Shown here: piece by piece, positions 6,437-61,856 of the stretch
Layout: every line of letters starts with the position of its first letter
How positions within the stretch are numbered: the stretch's first letter is position 1
Assembly: GCA_016193335.1 (NCBI GenBank)
Contig: JACPSK010000001.1
Location: forward strand, 279,424 to 343,423
Source: Candidatus Magasanikiibacteriota bacterium
GTDB lineage: Bacteria > Patescibacteriota > Patescibacteriia > Magasanikbacterales > UBA922
Direction of reading: 5' to 3'
Length of the DNA stretch: 64,000 bases
The notes under the pieces: model-generated
What the model was told of the DNA's origin: nothing
Seen by the model: only the letters and a program-made list of their open reading frames with translations
Databases searched by the model: none
Position numbers and translations under genes: made by a program

Positions 6437-7873
6437 TCAAACCTCTCTCACTTCGAGGACATTCACATGCCCGGATTCCCCCACCGGCTCTCCGGCGACC
6501 ACAATGATCTTGTCGCCCTTTTTTACTTGTTTATGTTTTTTTAGATAAACCATTGAACGCTCCACCAACTCTTCTATGGTTCTGCAAGGCGGGAGGACAA
6601 AAGGCGCCAGACCCCAAGACAAATTTAGCTGACGTTCTGTCCGCTCTGAATTGGTAGCCACCACGACCGGAAACTCAGGCCTGTTGCGGCTGATGAGCCG
6701 GCCTGTTTCTCCGCTGATGGAAGCGGCCAAAATAAGTTTTGCCCCAAGATCTTCGGCCGCCATCCGCGACATACGACTGATCACTTCATCCACAGAATGT
6801 TTTTTATGCGGGTTCTCCCGCGGGTGCAAGTCATCATAAGCGGATTCTTCGGTTTTCTCTATGATTTCCGACATGGTCTGGACAGTCTCCACCGGGTATT
6901 TTCCCGTGGCGGTTTCGTTGGAAAGCATTACCGCGTCCGCGTGGTCTATCACCGCGTTTGCCACGTCCGAGACTTCGGCTCTGGTAGGACGAGGATTATT
7001 TTGCATGGAATCGAGCATCTGTGTCGCCACGATAACCGGCTTTGCGTGATCAAGAGCCAAATCTATCAATTTTTTTTGCGTGAGTGGGACTTCGGCGGCC
7101 GGAATTTCTATGCCCAAGTCTCCGCGAGCCACCATGATGCCATCCACTACTTCGAGAATTTCGAGTATGTTCTGAACAGCTTTGCCTCGTTCTATTTTTG
7201 CGATTATTCTAATCGGCTGATCGGACACGATACCGCATTCTTTCTCATATTCTTTTATAAGATAACGTAAATCCAATATATCTTTGGCGCTGGTAACGAA
7301 GGAGAGCGCCATCAGGTCTACCTTCTGTTCGACTCCAAAACGCGCGTCCTTTTTGTCTTTTTCCGTAAGCGAGCTTACACTCAGATGCGAATCCGGTATA
7401 TTGATACCTTTGTGCGAGGTGATGGAACCGGAATTCAAAACCTTTGCGCTGATCCGAGTTCCTTCGACGCTTTCAATTTTTGTGCCCGTACGTCCATCAT
7501 TGAGCAGAAGCCGTTCTCCGCTCTGTACATGGGTATGCAATTCTTTGTAATCAACCGGAATCGCGGCGCCTTTATAGCTGTCTATGCTGGTGTCAAAAAT
7601 CACCGTGTCTCCTTCTTTTAATTCTATCCCCTCACCAGGCAAGACTCCAACTCTGATTTTAGGCCCTTGAAGATCTTGAAGCACGGCTATGGGTTCTCCG
7701 GTCTTTTTTCCAACCGAGCGAATATGTTCTATGAGCATCTGATGATTTTCATAGGTTCCATGTGAAAAATTCAAGCGAGCGATATTCATGCCGGCTTTAA
7801 CCATGGCGGTTATTTTCTCTATATTTTCGCAAGCAGGACCGATGGTACACACTATTTTCGTTCTTTTTTTCAT
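6437..7873 (-). CDS. pyk: Pyruvate kinase
   Basis: 478 aa. N-terminus MKKRTKIVCTIGPACENIEKI...NIARLNFSHGTYENHQ is the classic PK signature. Barrel and C-terminal regulatory domain present. Confidence 0.9.
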   Translation of the reverse strand: MKKRTKIVCTIGPACENIEKITAMVKAGMNIARLNFSHGTYENHQMLIEHIRSVGKKTGEPIAVLQDLQGPKIRVGVLPGEGIELKEGDTVIFDTSIDSYKGAAIPVDYKELHTHVQSGERLLLNDGRTGTKIESVEGTRISAKVLNSGSITSHKGINIPDSHLSVSSLTEKDKKDARFGVEQKVDLMALSFVTSAKDILDLRYLIKEYEKECGIVSDQPIRIIAKIERGKAVQNILEILEVVDGIMVARGDLGIEIPAAEVPLTQKKLIDLALDHAKPVIVATQMLDSMQNNPRPTRAEVSDVANAVIDHADAVMLSNETATGKYPVETVQTMSEIIEKTEESAYDDLHPRENPHKKHSVDEVISRMSRMAAEDLGAKLILAASISGETGRLISRNRPEFPVVVATNSERTERQLNLSWGLAPFVLPPCRTIEELVERSMVYLKKHKQVKKGDKIIVVAGEPVGESGHVNVLEVREV

Positions 7874-36158: not shown

Positions 36159-36584
36159 CTACTCGTAGATAGGCGCGCCGGGCCTCTTCCTCGGGGAAGG
36201 AAGCCTGCCCAAATCAGGGCTCAAGCCGGCTCCTTCAAGGAGCGAGCGAAGCGAGGCAAGCGTGCGGCCCTGCTCAGAGTCGTGCCGGAGAGCCATTGCT
36301 TTGTAGCATGCGGAGACGACTGTGGAATGGTCACGGCCCCCCAGAGTCTTCCCGATCTGGGGGAAAGACATCCGGGTATAAATCCGGAGAAGATACATGC
36401 AAAGATGCCTGGGCAAGGCTATCTGCTTGTACCTTCCTGAGCCTTGGACAGATCCAAAGGCCACATCAAAAAAACCGAGCAACGTGCCAATGACCAAACG
36501 GGCATCCCGGGCGCTGTTCGCCACCCCGACCAAACGCCCGCCATAAACCCGCGCTTGTGGGTCATTTGAAGTCGAAACGGACAT
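36159..36584 (-). CDS. Small DnaA domain-IV-like helix-turn-helix protein, encoded in a ~60% GC patch
   Basis: ALPRHLCMYLLRIYTRMSFPQIGKTLGGRDHSTVVSACYKAMA matches the DnaA C-terminal DNA-binding consensus (R..AMYL....T..S...IG..FGgRDHtTV.ha..k). Start chosen at MSVSTS, which has a GGGAGG SD 5 nt upstream. Confidence 0.55.
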   Translation of the reverse strand: MSVSTSNDPQARVYGGRLVGVANSARDARLVIGTLLGFFDVAFGSVQGSGRYKQIALPRHLCMYLLRIYTRMSFPQIGKTLGGRDHSTVVSACYKAMALRHDSEQGRTLASLRSLLEGAGLSPDLGRLPSPRKRPGAPIYE

Positions 36585-57938: not shown

Positions 57939-58055
57939 ATTGTAGCATATTTTGGATCTATCACTTCACGAAATACTTTAAAAATCAGAGAAGGAGAGTG
58001 AAGCAGACTGACTTCTGAGGATTCATAAAATATGTTGTCAGTGGATAAACGCAAG

Positions 58056-58160
58056 CCTATACCTTCACAACATATTAGTTTGGGAGCTGGAGGACGAGTG
58101 CGAGAGCGAAGCGGGATGACTTCCGCAAGCTCCCAAACTAATATGTTGTGAAGGTATAGG
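58056..58160. repeat. Conserved ~105-nt palindromic element, locus B (perfect 33-bp stem cctataccttcacaacatattagtttgggagct around the same GC-rich core)
   Basis: Arms are exact reverse complements. Core gaggacgagtgcgagagcgaagcgggatgacttccgca. Lies at the boundary of the high-GC island, upstream of recG. Confidence 0.55.
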
Positions 58161-58225
58161 CGTCTATAGACGTAGACATTTTGCTTTCCTCACTCGGTCC
58201 TTTACAGCAAAGACAAAGAGTTGGA

Positions 58226-58262
58226 AGCAGGGCTCGCGGATGCGATGAGCCCTGCGAGAGGC
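58226..58262 (-). terminator. Hairpin (gcagggctc-loop-gagccctgc) with U-rich tail downstream of the ALDH gene (minus-strand sense)
   Basis: 9-bp perfect GC-rich stem. The minus strand continues ttccaactctttgtcttt. Confidence 0.4.
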
Positions 58263-58291
58263 GAGAGTCCGGCTATGACCGGACGAAAGAA

Positions 58292-60673
58292 CTAGGCGCC
58301 CTTCAAGATGAAGGTGCTCGTCACCTGAGTGGCCTGGCGCAGGAATTCCAGGGACTCCCCCTGGGGTCCGGCCCAGTCAAAGGACGCATCAAGCTCGGTC
58401 CAGGTCCGCTTCATGTCTCTGGCCGAGGCTTTCTCCACGCGTGTGGCCAAAGCCCCGTCACCCCAGCACCAGACCGAGTCCACGTTCCCGTGGTTGGCCA
58501 GGTTCAAGGCGATGGCGTCCGGCTGAGACGCGGTGAGGATATTCAAGACCCCGGGAGGAAGATCCGAAGTCTGGGCGATCTCCACAAGGGTCATGGCCGT
58601 GAGCGGGTGCTTGCCAGAGACCAAGACCACGGTGTTGCCCCTGGCGAGAGCAGGCGCCAAAGAACCAATCAAACCGAGAAGCGGGAAAGCATCCGGCGCG
58701 CGAATGCCGATCACTCCGACCGGCTCGTAGCTGCTGGTCGCTTCAAAACTCGGATCAGCAAGACTCCCCACCCTGCCGGCGTGGTTCACCGCCTGAGAGG
58801 CCCAGTAGCTCAGCCGGCTGAGCGTGAGCGTGAGCTCCTCGCGCGCCTCTGCCATGCCACAGCCGGTCTGCTGAATCAGCTCGCGGATGAGACGATCTCG
58901 GCCAAGGAAGATCTTCTCCCGCATGAACAGGAGCACCTTGCGACGAAGATCCGGTCCTTTGAGAGCCCAGGAAGCCTGGGCATCGGAGGCCGCAGTGACC
59001 GCGTCTCGGACATCCTTCCTGGATGCCTCGCCGACATCGCCAAGATAAACGCCCGAAGGCGACAGCACCTCAAAGCTCCTTCCTCCGTCAGGCCGCTTCA
59101 GCGCACCGCCAATCAGGAAGCGGTGGGTCACGTCAATGACCCCAAGGCCAGAGTCATCAGCCAACGAAACACCGGCTTCTTCGGACCGCGCGCCTCGAGC
59201 CTTGGCCGGCGGATAGTCTTCCAAGGTCACATCGAGCATGCCCTCCGGACCGCCTTCGCTTCCTTTGCCGCTTCTGCGAGCACCGCTGAAAGGCAAATCG
59301 CCGTCAAAGACCTCGGCGCAGTTCACCCAGCGGGTGCCGGCCTTGATCCGGCTTGCCACATGGTGAGCCTTGTCCGTGTCGTTCGACCACACCGAGCAGG
59401 CCAGGCCGTACTCAGTGTTGCCGGCCAAGCGAATGGCATCCTCAGTGGTCGTGAACGTCATCACGGCGAGGACCGGTCCAAAGACCTCGTCCCTGGCCAC
59501 CGAGTTACTGGGGTCAACCATGAGGAGTGTGGGGCGCACAAAGAAACCGGCCTCGGGCAAGGTGCAATCGGGCTGCCAAACTTCGGCGCCTTCCTCCCTT
59601 GCGAGATGGATCATACCGGTAACTTTTTCGAACTGAGCCTTCGAGTTGAGCGGGCCCATGTCCGTGCTCTTATCGAGAGGATCTCCCACGCGAATGCGCG
59701 CGAAGCGCCTCTTGAGCCGCTCCACGAGAGACGGCATCACTGCCTCATGTACGATCAGTCGAGAGCAGGCACAGCAGACTTCTCCCTTGTTGAAGAGAAT
59801 GCTGCGCACCACAGCCTCGACCACGGCATCAAGGTCAGCGTCTTCACAGACCACCATGGGCGACTTGCCGCCCAACTCCAAAGTCAATCGCTTGCCGCTT
59901 CCGGCCGTGGCTTCGCGAATCGAAGCGCCGGCGGCCGTAGAGCCGGTGAAGCTGATCTTCCAAGGAGTCCGGTGAGCTACCACCAGCTTGCCGGTTTCCC
60001 GGTTGCCGGTAACAATGTTCAGCACACCGGGCGGCAAGCCGACGCGCCGGCAGATCCCGGCAAAATACATGGCGGTAACCGGCGTGGTATCGCCCGGTTT
60101 GATGACCATGGTATTGCCGGCCGCGAGAGCGGCCCCCACTTTCCATGCCAAAAGCATGAGGGGGAAGTTCCATGCATACACGGCTCCGACCACGCCTCCG
60201 GGCTTGCGGCCCGGGAACAGCCTCTCGAAGAGACGGGCGTATGTCGCCTGCTGTCCGAAATGCCTGGCAGTGACTGGAATGTCCGCCAGCCTGGTCTCGC
60301 GGAAAGGCTTGCCTGTGTCCAAAGCCTCGAGAACCTCGAAATCCCGACGGAACTTGAGAATCTGCCGCTCGAAAGCATACAGGTACTCGGCCCGCGCGGC
60401 ACCCGAGAGAGCGCTCCACGCAGGGAATGCGGCGGCGGCTGCAGCGTAAGCCGCGTCCACGTCTGCCGCGTTGCCCTGGGTAAAGCGAGCCAGAACCTTG
60501 CCTGTGGCAGGGTTAATGGCATCCAACATGTCGACGCCGGGGTTAGTGAACTCACCGCCGATGAAGTGGCCGAAACCACCCTCACGGCTCAGCCAGGCGA
60601 GAGCCTCTTTAGGACTCTCCGGCGCCGGACTGTACTTGAAAGGTCCGGTCAAGCTAAAAGTTCTTGCTTCCAT
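58292..60673 (-). CDS. NAD(P)-dependent aldehyde dehydrogenase with an additional C-terminal partial ALDH-like domain; high-GC (~62%) gene
   Basis: 793 aa. First ~480 aa is a full ALDH (GGKSPMVVCEDADLD, FNKGEVCCACSRLIVHE catalytic Cys, ELGGKSP). Residues ~500-793 repeat an ALDH-like N-terminal/NAD-binding fold without a clear catalytic Cys. The plus-strand 843-aa ORF 58181..60712 is an antisense artefact of high GC. Confidence 0.75.
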   Translation of the reverse strand: MEARTFSLTGPFKYSPAPESPKEALAWLSREGGFGHFIGGEFTNPGVDMLDAINPATGKVLARFTQGNAADVDAAYAAAAAAFPAWSALSGAARAEYLYAFERQILKFRRDFEVLEALDTGKPFRETRLADIPVTARHFGQQATYARLFERLFPGRKPGGVVGAVYAWNFPLMLLAWKVGAALAAGNTMVIKPGDTTPVTAMYFAGICRRVGLPPGVLNIVTGNRETGKLVVAHRTPWKISFTGSTAAGASIREATAGSGKRLTLELGGKSPMVVCEDADLDAVVEAVVRSILFNKGEVCCACSRLIVHEAVMPSLVERLKRRFARIRVGDPLDKSTDMGPLNSKAQFEKVTGMIHLAREEGAEVWQPDCTLPEAGFFVRPTLLMVDPSNSVARDEVFGPVLAVMTFTTTEDAIRLAGNTEYGLACSVWSNDTDKAHHVASRIKAGTRWVNCAEVFDGDLPFSGARRSGKGSEGGPEGMLDVTLEDYPPAKARGARSEEAGVSLADDSGLGVIDVTHRFLIGGALKRPDGGRSFEVLSPSGVYLGDVGEASRKDVRDAVTAASDAQASWALKGPDLRRKVLLFMREKIFLGRDRLIRELIQQTGCGMAEAREELTLTLSRLSYWASQAVNHAGRVGSLADPSFEATSSYEPVGVIGIRAPDAFPLLGLIGSLAPALARGNTVVLVSGKHPLTAMTLVEIAQTSDLPPGVLNILTASQPDAIALNLANHGNVDSVWCWGDGALATRVEKASARDMKRTWTELDASFDWAGPQGESLEFLRQATQVTSTFILKGA

Positions 60674-60687
60674 TTTCCTCTCTCCTA

Positions 60688-61638
60688 TCAGCCGATCGGG
60701 ATCTCGGTGTAGTCGGCGTACTTGTCGCCGCCACCGTCCGCGTTCGTGGTAAGCTGGGCGATCAAGTCGTCCAGAAGCGTACTCGCGCCGATCCTGAAGA
60801 GGCGCGGCTCGAGCCAGCTCGGGTCGAGAGTACCCAGCTCTTCGTTCATGAGGACAAACCAGGCACGAGCCTGGGCCGCCTTGCCAATGCCGCCGGCAGG
60901 TTTGAAACCCACCATACGGCCAGGGTCCACCTCGGTGTAGAACCAGCGAATCATGCGGAGCATGACCAAGCCCACCGGCAAGGTCGCGTTGACCTTCTCC
61001 ATGCCGGTTGAAGTCTTGATGAAGTCAGCCCCTGCCATCATGGCCACGCAGGCCGCCTTGGCAATGATCTGGTAGTCTGCCAAGTCACCGACCCCGAGGA
61101 TCACCTTCAGATGAGCCTGGCCACAGACCTCGCGGAAAGCCACAAGCTCGTCGTAGAGTTCCCGCCAGCGCTCGCAGAGTGCCAGCCCGCGGCGAATCAC
61201 CACGTCGATCTCAGCGGCTCCTGCCTCCACCGCTCCGCGAATCTGAGCACAGCGCTCTTCGAGCGAAGAGTTCTGCCCGTGCGGAAAGTCTGTGGACACA
61301 GCCGCCACAGGCACTCGCCCGTAGAGGGCTGCAACGGCAACGGGAACCTGCTGTCTGTACACGCAGACTCCGCCAACCGTCAGTGGCTCGTTATAGCCCA
61401 GCTTGGCCAAAACCCCGGACGGAACCGGAGCCAAAGCCTTGCGGCAGAGACGCCGCACGTTGCCGGGGGTGTCTCCACCCTTCAAGGTGGTGTCATCAAT
61501 GAGACCCACCAAACGGAGATCCGCCTCCACCTGAGAATCTCCCTTGATGCTCCGCCTGGAAACCAGGTCTGCGGCGTCTATGTCCACCTGGGGCCTGCTC
61601 GCATGAACGTGAGACAGAATCCCAGGATCCCAAACCAT
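60688..61638 (-). CDS. deoC: Deoxyribose-phosphate aldolase, long (class II-like) form. High-GC gene, start trimmed so it does not overlap tRNA-Arg
   Basis: LIDDTTLKGGDT, VCVYRQQVP, VSTDFPHGQ, Schiff-base Lys region FIKTSTGMEKVNAT, GFKPAGGI. The six-frame call to 61842 would run through the tRNA at 61785-61856, so the start was moved to Met at 61638. Confidence 0.75.
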   Translation of the reverse strand: MVWDPGILSHVHASRPQVDIDAADLVSRRSIKGDSQVEADLRLVGLIDDTTLKGGDTPGNVRRLCRKALAPVPSGVLAKLGYNEPLTVGGVCVYRQQVPVAVAALYGRVPVAAVSTDFPHGQNSSLEERCAQIRGAVEAGAAEIDVVIRRGLALCERWRELYDELVAFREVCGQAHLKVILGVGDLADYQIIAKAACVAMMAGADFIKTSTGMEKVNATLPVGLVMLRMIRWFYTEVDPGRMVGFKPAGGIGKAAQARAWFVLMNEELGTLDPSWLEPRLFRIGASTLLDDLIAQLTTNADGGGDKYADYTEIPIG

Positions 61639-61784
61639 GGGCGCAAGCACAGGGTGCCTTGCCCTTTCAACAAAACCAGTACCAGTCTGAGTATCCAAAA
61701 AACACCTCGCCTGTAGGTTGTTGCTTGCACAAATGTGCCCGCTGACTCTACTGTATTGAGGTGTTTTTGTAAAGGTATATCGTG

Positions 61785-61856
61785 TGCTCTCGGCAGGAAT
61801 CGAACCTGCATTGCCAGATCCGCAATCTGGTGTCCTATCCATTGAACGACAAGAGC
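61785..61856 (-). tRNA. tRNA-Arg (anticodon GCG)
   Basis: Reverse complement gives gctcttg-tc-gttc-aatggata-ggac-a-ccaga-ttGCGga-tctgg-caat-gcagg-ttcgatt-cctgc-cgagagc-a. All stems pair (one G-U). Confidence 0.8.

Follow-up and report, generated by a model that had tools for sequence, protein, structure and literature searches.

A GC-Rich deoC-ALDH16 Operon, Probably Acquired by Horizontal Transfer, between tRNA-Arg and recG in a Candidatus Magasanikbacteria Genome

We describe a two-gene segment within a 64,000-nt stretch of the genome of a Candidatus Magasanikbacteria bacterium (herein the window; contig JACPSK010000001.1 of GCA_016193335.1, positions 279,424 through 343,423), a member of the candidate phyla radiation (CPR; Patescibacteria). 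The segment encodes a long-form deoxyribose-phosphate aldolase (DeoC, or DERA) and an aldehyde dehydrogenase (ALDH) of the ALDH16 family. In our judgment it is probably a genuine, horizontally acquired catabolic operon that occupies a variable slot between a native tRNA-Arg(GCG) gene and recG; the direction and number of transfers we infer. The operon belongs to a distinct, fast-evolving ALDH16 sub-lineage that, in all members examined, forms a GC-rich island at differing sites in low-GC genomes. As the island recurs at different sites, the cassette appears to be either mobile among these genomes or repeatedly imported, and its GC excess appears to be decaying only slowly. The ALDH16 family is known in kind, as are its conserved pairing with deoC in an operon and the occurrence of a compositional island at a variable site; what goes beyond the routine is that the island state recurs in deeply diverged low-GC genomes, several of which are CPR or CPR-like, and that deoC has a strong genomic link to an enzyme family without an assigned physiological role.

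Composition and Boundaries of the Island

Measured in 400-nt windows, GC content rises from 0.43 (57800 through 58199) to 0.62 to 0.63 (58200 through 61599) and has returned to 0.45 by 61600 through 61999. Across the island (58.2 to 61.7 kb) GC is 0.62 compared with 0.44 to 0.45 in the flanks, which bears out the high-GC segment in a low-GC background described in an original prediction made from the sequence; the remainder of the window stays within 0.39 to 0.49 per kb, save for one block near 53.5 kb. The island edges are sharp and match gene ends, and the switch on the 3′ side of the ALDH16 gene falls near 58225. Both genes lie on the minus strand in the predicted order: deoC (60688 through 61698; GC 0.622, GC at third codon positions [GC3] 0.75) is followed by the ALDH16 gene (58292 through 60673; GC 0.620, GC3 0.73), with 14 nt, not the 15 nt first given, separating the deoC stop from the ALDH16 start.

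By codon position, the two genes have a GC1 of 0.63 to 0.66, a GC2 of 0.46 to 0.50, and a GC3 of 0.73 to 0.75, against 0.47 to 0.57, 0.35 to 0.42, and 0.41 to 0.48, respectively, in the neighboring genes; the anomaly thus extends to all three codon positions. The neighbors encoding RecG, IMPDH, RadA, and a hypothetical protein (hyp171) have a GC3 of 0.41 to 0.47. The ∼36 native open reading frames (ORFs) of the window have a mean GC3 of 0.47 (SD 0.06, two small outliers counted), and codon choice in the island is opposite to that of native genes (island versus native: AAG, 0.80 versus 0.20; GAG, 0.73 versus 0.23; ATA, 0.02 versus 0.38). The features described are present at the coordinates given, far beyond chance.

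The Closest Relatives Are Also GC-Rich Islands

A search of 5.8 billion proteins, together with a metagenome scan, placed the closest relatives of the ALDH16 protein (51 to 62% identical) in further genomes of low GC, several of which are CPR or CPR-like. The original prediction had expected best matches in high-GC lineages; the closest homologs are instead found in low-GC genomes, again as high-GC islands. The window protein and seven homologs (54 to 62% identity) group together with a neighbor-joining bootstrap of 100. This eight-sequence group is nested in a 22-member clade (bootstrap 85), which also holds Magasanik, Kerfeld, and Uhrbacteria sequences as well as FCB-like sequences with Bacteroidota-type secretion markers. 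CPR representation in the analysis comprises nine loci.

For every low-GC relative whose DNA was obtained, the operon is a GC-rich island, and its context is different each time. Across the island loci (L008, L010/L011, L012, L096, L098, L099, L100, and L101) operon GC is 0.57 to 0.73 compared with 0.39 to 0.51 in the flanks. The values for operon and flank, respectively, are 0.67 to 0.68 and 0.44 for L012; 0.66 to 0.73 and 0.41 to 0.43 for L100; 0.65 to 0.66 (GC3 0.88 to 0.89) and 0.39 to 0.48 for L098; 0.64 to 0.65 and 0.46 to 0.47 for L099; 0.64 to 0.65 and ∼0.51 for L096 (Uhrbacteria); 0.57 to 0.66 and 0.45 to 0.46 for L101; 0.60 to 0.62 and 0.46 to 0.49 for L008; and 0.60 to 0.62 and ∼0.48 for L010/L011, where an intron-bearing 16S rRNA gene, a CPR hallmark, lies 1.2 kb away. 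The operon is native in the FCB-like L095 and L097 (operon GC 0.58 to 0.61, genome 0.55 to 0.56), and the nearest homologs that are native to their own genome are 47 to 48% identical, in genomes of ∼55% GC.

Some of these loci have further features of their own. The 16S rRNA gene of L011 (4043 through 6476) is split by a ∼1-kb group I intron encoding a LAGLIDADG protein, and downstream of it come another group I intron and part of a group II intron (7489 through 7746). Additional GC-rich accessory genes occur at 864 through 1877 and 7948 through 8523 of L098 and at 6904 through 8838 and 4319 through 5617 of L096; examples are a 2OG-Fe(II) oxygenase (GC 0.65, GC3 0.86), an acetate-CoA ligase (GC3 0.79), and hypothetical proteins of 191 aa (GC3 0.76) and 432 aa (GC3 0.71). 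Some of them are split from deoC-ALDH16 by low-GC genes. The L098 and L096 genomes appear to be mosaics of a low-GC core and GC-rich accessory genes.

ALDH16 Genes Track Host GC Content

A scan of species-representative genomes yielded 80 ALDH16 loci among the matches listed (L013 through L092), all of them non-CPR. In the 72 of these with enough flanking sequence and a native gene, ALDH16 GC follows flank GC closely (ALDH16 GC = 0.89 × flank GC + 0.09; r = 0.98, residual SD 0.019), and the window gene lies 7 residual SD above this line. The offset of native ALDH16 genes from their flanks averages +0.027 and reaches +0.087 at most. Family GC among the listed matches ranges from 0.36 (Flavobacteriaceae) to 0.72 (Gemmatimonadales), with values of 0.36 to 0.43 in Flavobacteriaceae and Thioglobus. 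Because native genes track host GC over this whole range, high GC is not something that the family intrinsically requires, and an explanation of the island on that basis was rejected.

A Variable Slot between tRNA-Arg and recG

The deoC gene starts 85 nt downstream of the 3′ end of tRNA-Arg(GCG) (61784 through 61856, minus strand; identified with ARAGORN and Rfam). At the other end, the stretch that separates the 3′ end of ALDH16 from the start of recG holds a near-perfect palindrome (58055 through 58161, no strand; 40-nt arms at 58055 through 58094 and 58122 through 58161, 27-nt loop), which delimits the island on its low-GC side; the original prediction had recognized this arrangement of tRNA and palindrome. 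The closest RecG homologs, L094 among them, are only 67% identical, and a strictly empty site was not found in a close relative. L094 has the frame DprA-Pth-Der-LytR-hyp167-tRNA-Arg(GCG) ... RecG, with hyp167 67% identical to the window gene; between tRNA-Arg(GCG) and recG it carries five unrelated low-GC genes and tRNA-Arg(CCG). Also kept in L094 is the tRNA-Arg(GCG) gene with its TTGACT/TATACT promoter (GGTTGACTTTTT...TATACT). Because L094 shows the same frame with other cargo, the tRNA is native and the tRNA-recG space is a variable slot.

The horizontal acquisition proposed originally is supported by the foreign composition and by the other genes at this site in L094; the tRNA adjacency does not reflect classical integrase-mediated insertion. 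The island consists of deoC and ALDH16 only, with no integrase or recombinase gene, and shows no att-like repeat (the longest word common to both boundaries is 8 nt, compared with a shuffle mean of 7.4 and maximum of 11); a classical tRNA-integrase island was rejected for these reasons. When IMG/VR was scanned using the alignment of the clade, there were 32 pattern matches and no confirmed relative on viral contigs, and a phage origin, or a phage-borne auxiliary metabolic gene, was rejected accordingly. The palindrome, whose arms are 95% complementary (fold z = −12), is unmatched elsewhere in the window and among 143 fetched loci and was not found upstream of recG in the relatives L093 and L094; the absence of a second copy led us to reject it as a repeated mobile element.

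Several sequence elements bear on expression of the operon. The promoter-like sequence upstream of the tRNA (TTGACT-17-TATACT; 61902 through 61930, minus strand) matches 10 of 12 consensus positions, and between tRNA and deoC there is a weak sigma-70-like match (TTTACA-17-TAGAGT; 61745 through 61773, minus strand) with only 9 of 12. A terminator scan detected no terminator-like site between the promoter upstream of the tRNA and deoC, so read-through from the tRNA promoter into the operon is possible; to judge from these elements, the operon may be expressed from that promoter or from a weak one of its own. Just past the ALDH16 stop codon, the predicted fold contains GC-rich 3′ untranslated region hairpins (58228 through 58283, minus strand). 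They were not flagged by the simple terminator scan and are likely the operon’s own terminator region.

tRNA genes were also noted elsewhere. In L099 the island is flanked by tRNAs on both sides, with tRNA-Arg(TCG) upstream (4238 through 4309) and, downstream, an incomplete tRNA where the contig ends (8383 through 8427), an arrangement that hints at tRNA-proximal DNA as a preferred landing zone even without an integrase. The bacterial tRNA-Arg anticodon is usually ACG, read as inosine. Those found here are GCG, CCG, and TCG (window, 61784 through 61856; L094, 4217 through 4289 and 5521 through 5593; L099, 4237 through 4309), which points to a decoding of CGN codons in these genomes that involves no A34-to-I34 step.

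Integrity of the Assembly

The original prediction allowed for a chimeric assembly. On this reading, misassembly or misbinning would have fused a GC-rich fragment from another organism with a CPR contig, the joins lying at the palindrome and the tRNA. Such an artifact would explain the abrupt composition jump and the fact that short-read unitigs stop within the palindrome: in Logan assemblies every contig on the ALDH side stops at 58132 and the one on the recG side at 58084, leaving the recG-side junction unbridged. Each of these ends lies 30 nt inside a palindrome arm, however, and since a k = 31 graph breaks in this way at a 40-nt inverted repeat, the unitig breaks are no sign of a misjoin. 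Logan contigs of SRR12113424, SRR12113383, SRR12113426, SRR12113401, and SRR12113428 are 100% identical to the locus, with no strain-level single-nucleotide polymorphisms; the tRNA-side junction is present in the assemblies of four separate runs and the recG side in one further run. Two NCBI contigs hold genes from both sides. The exact ALDH16 protein is found on CAYOIR010000003.1 (165 kb, GCA_964404105.1, Candidatus Magasanikbacteria), and a second contig, 686,675 nt long and bearing HYY51 locus tags, likewise includes ALDH16, RecG, and the 53.7-kb ORFan. Since the low/high/low GC arrangement recurs, moreover, in eight other, unrelated loci, a chimera is highly improbable, and we rejected it for practical purposes on the strength of the five identical Logan assemblies and the 686-kb contig.

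The Two Enzymes and Their Proposed Pathway

The 793-aa ALDH has two Aldedh stretches (Pfam E = 1.3e-178; the first at residues 49 through 483), in agreement with the second, truncated ALDH-like domain predicted originally. A complete catalytic ALDH domain (approximately residues 35 through 485) is followed by a truncated ALDH-like, pseudo-NAD-binding C-terminal domain (approximately residues 515 through 793). The protein matches PDB 6MVR_A with E = 4.8e-183 (query residues 12 through 789 against chain residues 11 through 763); its C-terminal domain aligns along the entire 6MVR C-terminal domain and is without the Cys/Glu catalytic motifs. Judged from sequence, the “double-domain ALDH” is the known architecture of the ALDH16 family (cd07111) and not an oddity of this locus (6MVR; PMC12041015).

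The structures of Loktanella sp. ALDH16 (6MVR, 6MVS, 6MVT, and 6MVU) are due to Liu and Tanner 2019, according to PMC8160307 and PMC12041015. As described there, the enzyme has a normal NAD-binding and catalytic unit with Asn165, Glu261, and Cys295, and a C-terminal domain similar to those that bind cofactors; this domain takes up no nucleotide and gives rise to an unusual dimer. In the window protein, N169, E266, and C300-C301 correspond to Asn165, Glu261, and Cys295 of 6MVR (residues as in PMC12041015). N169, E266, C300, and C301 are invariant in an alignment of 18 homologs. Gout is a disorder of purine metabolism. The vertebrate ALDH16A1 is a pseudoenzyme linked to gout, and recent reviews assign ALDH16 no known physiological role (PMC8160307, PMC12041015).

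The aldolase assignment is based on a TIGR00126 profile match (119.2 bits against a cutoff of 117.3, a narrow margin) and on alignment to E. coli DERA 1JCL (E = 6.5e-34), in which the lysine motifs DFIKTSTG and VGFKPAGG and the aspartate of EIDVV (E[I/V]DVV) are conserved. The catalytic residues of DERA are numbered K167, K201, and D102. A TTG start at 61698 gives a protein of 336 aa, as in the NCBI call, and an internal ATG at 61641 gives one of 317 aa; the TTG is preferred because a Shine-Dalgarno-like GAGGTG motif lies 4 nt before it. This long form of deoC is the one that accompanies ALDH16 across phyla (47 to 57% identity).

A long-form deoC lies directly upstream of ALDH16 on the same strand at 72 of the 80 loci among the matches listed, and at five of the other eight the upstream sequence is too short to judge. 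The listed loci span Chloroflexota, Gemmatimonadota, Alpha- and Gammaproteobacteria, Bacteroidota, Acidobacteriota, Myxococcota, Verrucomicrobiota, and others (at least eight phyla with linked deoC). This linkage in 72 of 80 listed genomes from many phyla identifies deoC-ALDH16 as a conserved operon. Two relatives extend it: the Uhrbacteria contig L096 carries an acetate-CoA ligase gene (acs; 959 bits), deoC, and ALDH16, all GC-rich, and in a second Magasanikbacteria genome deoC-ALDH16 is followed by a phosphopentomutase-like (deoB-like) gene (234 bits, below the cutoff of 256).

In the pathway that we propose, DeoC, a class I aldolase that retains the Schiff-base lysine, would cleave 2-deoxyribose-5-phosphate to glyceraldehyde-3-phosphate and acetaldehyde. 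ALDH16, with an intact Asn/Glu/Cys triad, would then most likely oxidize the acetaldehyde to acetate and yield NAD(P)H, its noncatalytic, pseudo-Rossmann C-terminal domain serving, by analogy, in dimerization. Acetaldehyde as the substrate we infer from gene context. The two enzymes together could supply carbon and reducing power from scavenged deoxynucleosides to a cell of minimal metabolism. The deoxyribose-5-phosphate to glyceraldehyde-3-phosphate plus acetate route named in the original prediction remains plausible, as the acs-deoC-ALDH16 and deoC-ALDH16-deoB-like arrangements support a sequence from deoxyribose-1-phosphate through deoxyribose-5-phosphate to glyceraldehyde-3-phosphate plus acetaldehyde, then to acetate and possibly acetyl-CoA. 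Within the library searched, no paper was found on ALDH16 with deoC, deoxyribose, or aldolase and none on Patescibacteria with DERA.

Age of the Island and Alternative Explanations

We considered two explanations of the persistent GC excess besides a horizontally acquired operon that slowly ameliorates. One is that the islands are independent, fairly recent imports from a single, essentially unsampled GC-rich donor lineage (∼60 to 68% GC), the GC signal reflecting short residence in each host; we regard this as possible, if somewhat unlikely. Sharp boundaries at gene ends and an insertion site that differs in every lineage would follow naturally from it, and in the window ALDH16 gene GC1, GC2, and GC3 all imply a donor of ∼0.57 to 0.60 GC or more, with no lag of GC3. 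However, no member of the eight-sequence clade, nor L100, was found in a GC-rich native context in the search of 5.8 billion proteins and the metagenome scan. The eight-member clade is also the faster evolving (distance to 178 other ALDH16 proteins of 0.93, compared with 0.64 to 0.65 for its sister groups), which fits long residence in fast-evolving CPR genomes. In L012 and L100, moreover, the operon occupies the same site, past the rlmH 3′ end and its terminator hairpin, with 83% nucleotide identity; this shared site indicates that the island has been inherited there for a substantial time. We used the pair to follow the direction of compositional change, comparing third positions of codons that encode the same amino acid in both and polarizing the differences with L098 as outgroup. 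GC-to-AT changes outnumber AT-to-GC changes 43 to 12 (21 to 1 with stricter outgroups), so the island is losing GC and is at no stable equilibrium. This net loss, as expected after import, is amelioration toward the host, observed in one lineage pair.

The same imbalance argues against the other explanation, which we consider quite unlikely: long residence in CPR genomes with GC3 kept high in situ by selection for G- or C-ending codons, by mRNA stability, or by GC-biased gene conversion tied to frequent cassette recombination. Fragments of EF-G and EF-Tu on the L010/L011 contigs are low in GC (0.42 to 0.46), so highly expressed genes show no genome-wide preference for GC-ending codons, which disfavors translational selection; the family, as shown above, also tolerates low GC in Flavobacteriaceae and Thioglobus. 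In favor of maintenance are the island state in all examined loci across 51 to 62% protein identity, a GC3 far above the GC1/GC2 prediction in L098, L099, L012, and L096, and the pattern of synonymous change between L012 and L100. Here C↔G changes (66) exceed GC-to-AT changes (43) within the island, whereas in the adjacent rlmH fragment changes between G/C and A/T outnumber those within G/C by 32 to 4; synonymous third positions differ at 25% in the island and at 59% in rlmH, a flank sample of 44 codons only. The features that fit simple amelioration poorly come from small samples, and a GC-preserving force is a minority possibility. A wider reading, that deoC-ALDH16 of CPR bacteria is a long-lived, self-contained GC-rich cassette that hops between sites and lineages, with synonymous sites shielded from AT-biased drift by selection or GC-biased gene conversion and a composition that is heritable, we hold to be unlikely.

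Several observations weigh against the reading that we prefer, an acquired operon undergoing amelioration. In several loci, GC3 implies a donor GC of 0.65 to 0.67 compared with 0.50 to 0.59 from GC1 and GC2, whereas amelioration should produce the reverse. Divergence among the island-bearing relatives is deep (54 to 62% identity), and simple neutral amelioration should by now have erased the GC3 signal of a single old acquisition. No donor emerged from the 5.8 billion proteins, in which nothing outside the island-bearing group is more than ∼49% identical, and mobility genes, att repeats, and relatives on viral contigs were all not found. The tree was built by neighbor joining on Kimura distances, not by maximum likelihood. 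With regard to the substrate, the Loktanella enzyme was assayed, and found active, on medium-chain aldehydes such as hexanal (PMC12041015).

Other GC-Rich Patches and ORFs in the Window

The original prediction took homologous genes of similar GC throughout this genome to speak against acquisition; the window does contain two other small high-GC patches, neither of them homologous to the island. One is a block between radA and guaB (53500 through 53940, GC 0.64) with a single 95-aa ORF (53653 through 53940, minus strand, GC3 0.86) that has no Pfam or NCBIfam match and no homolog but itself. REP-like hairpin repeats with the common sequence AAGGAGGGGATRTAAGGGGTGGTT flank the block (53363 through 53460 and 54079 through 54212), and an Rfam search of it returned only sub-threshold, microRNA-type noise due to the hairpins. 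As guaB and radA are only 36 nt apart in L093, the 1-kb segment from 53300 through 54220 is an insertion. The other patch is a gene at 36159 through 36617 (minus strand; GC 0.57, GC3 0.65 versus ∼0.43 around it), ∼550 nt from tRNA-Val; its 152-aa product is a DnaA C-terminal helix-turn-helix domain that stands alone (PF08299, E = 6e-19). The window also contains a single ORF of 4,023 aa (16201 through 28272, minus strand) with a host-like GC of 0.46.

Discussion

The recurrence of the GC-rich island state despite deep divergence challenges the equation of a GC anomaly with recent transfer, and no paper on a persistent GC excess of deoC-ALDH16 was found within the library searched. With these islands, the rate of amelioration in CPR genomes, or the forces that preserve GC there, could be measured in a tractable setting; if the cassette were indeed long-lived and shielded, its composition would be a heritable property and not the fading trace of a recent donor. 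ALDH16 has a solved structure, no assigned physiological role, and a strong genomic link to deoC, which suggests the testable hypothesis that, in bacteria, ALDH16 serves deoxyribose catabolism as its acetaldehyde dehydrogenase. For the host genome, the operon would add a deoxynucleoside-to-acetate route for energy and carbon in an organism of very limited metabolism.

At the level of the proteins, the window ALDH16 resembles the enzyme of the solved structures (6MVR, 6MVS, 6MVT, and 6MVU; 767 aa) in combining a complete ALDH domain, with its Asn/Glu/Cys triad, and a Rossmann-like C-terminal domain without the catalytic part. It differs from typical bacterial ALDH16 proteins, to which it is ∼45% identical, in belonging to a long-branched sub-lineage seen only as GC-rich islands in low-GC genomes. 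DeoC shares the class I aldolase fold and catalytic motifs of E. coli DERA (259 aa) but is longer (317 to 336 aa), with an N-terminal extension of ∼40 residues and an insertion of ∼13 residues.

At the level of the locus, the island has in common with tRNA-associated genomic islands its deviant GC and codon usage, a site just 3′ of a tRNA, accessory metabolic cargo, and different cargo at the same site in L094. Unlike them, it has no integrase and no duplicated tRNA 3′ end or att site and comprises two genes only, and in other genomes the deoC-ALDH16 cargo is mostly not beside a tRNA. Genes for nucleoside and nucleotide salvage have reportedly been transferred laterally among CPR bacteria and DPANN archaea, as in the work on RuBisCO and the AMP pathway. 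The operon described here would likewise be a patchy nucleoside-catabolism module whose phylogeny does not follow host context; in this case, however, the module is deoC-ALDH16, and its GC excess persists across deeply diverged copies.

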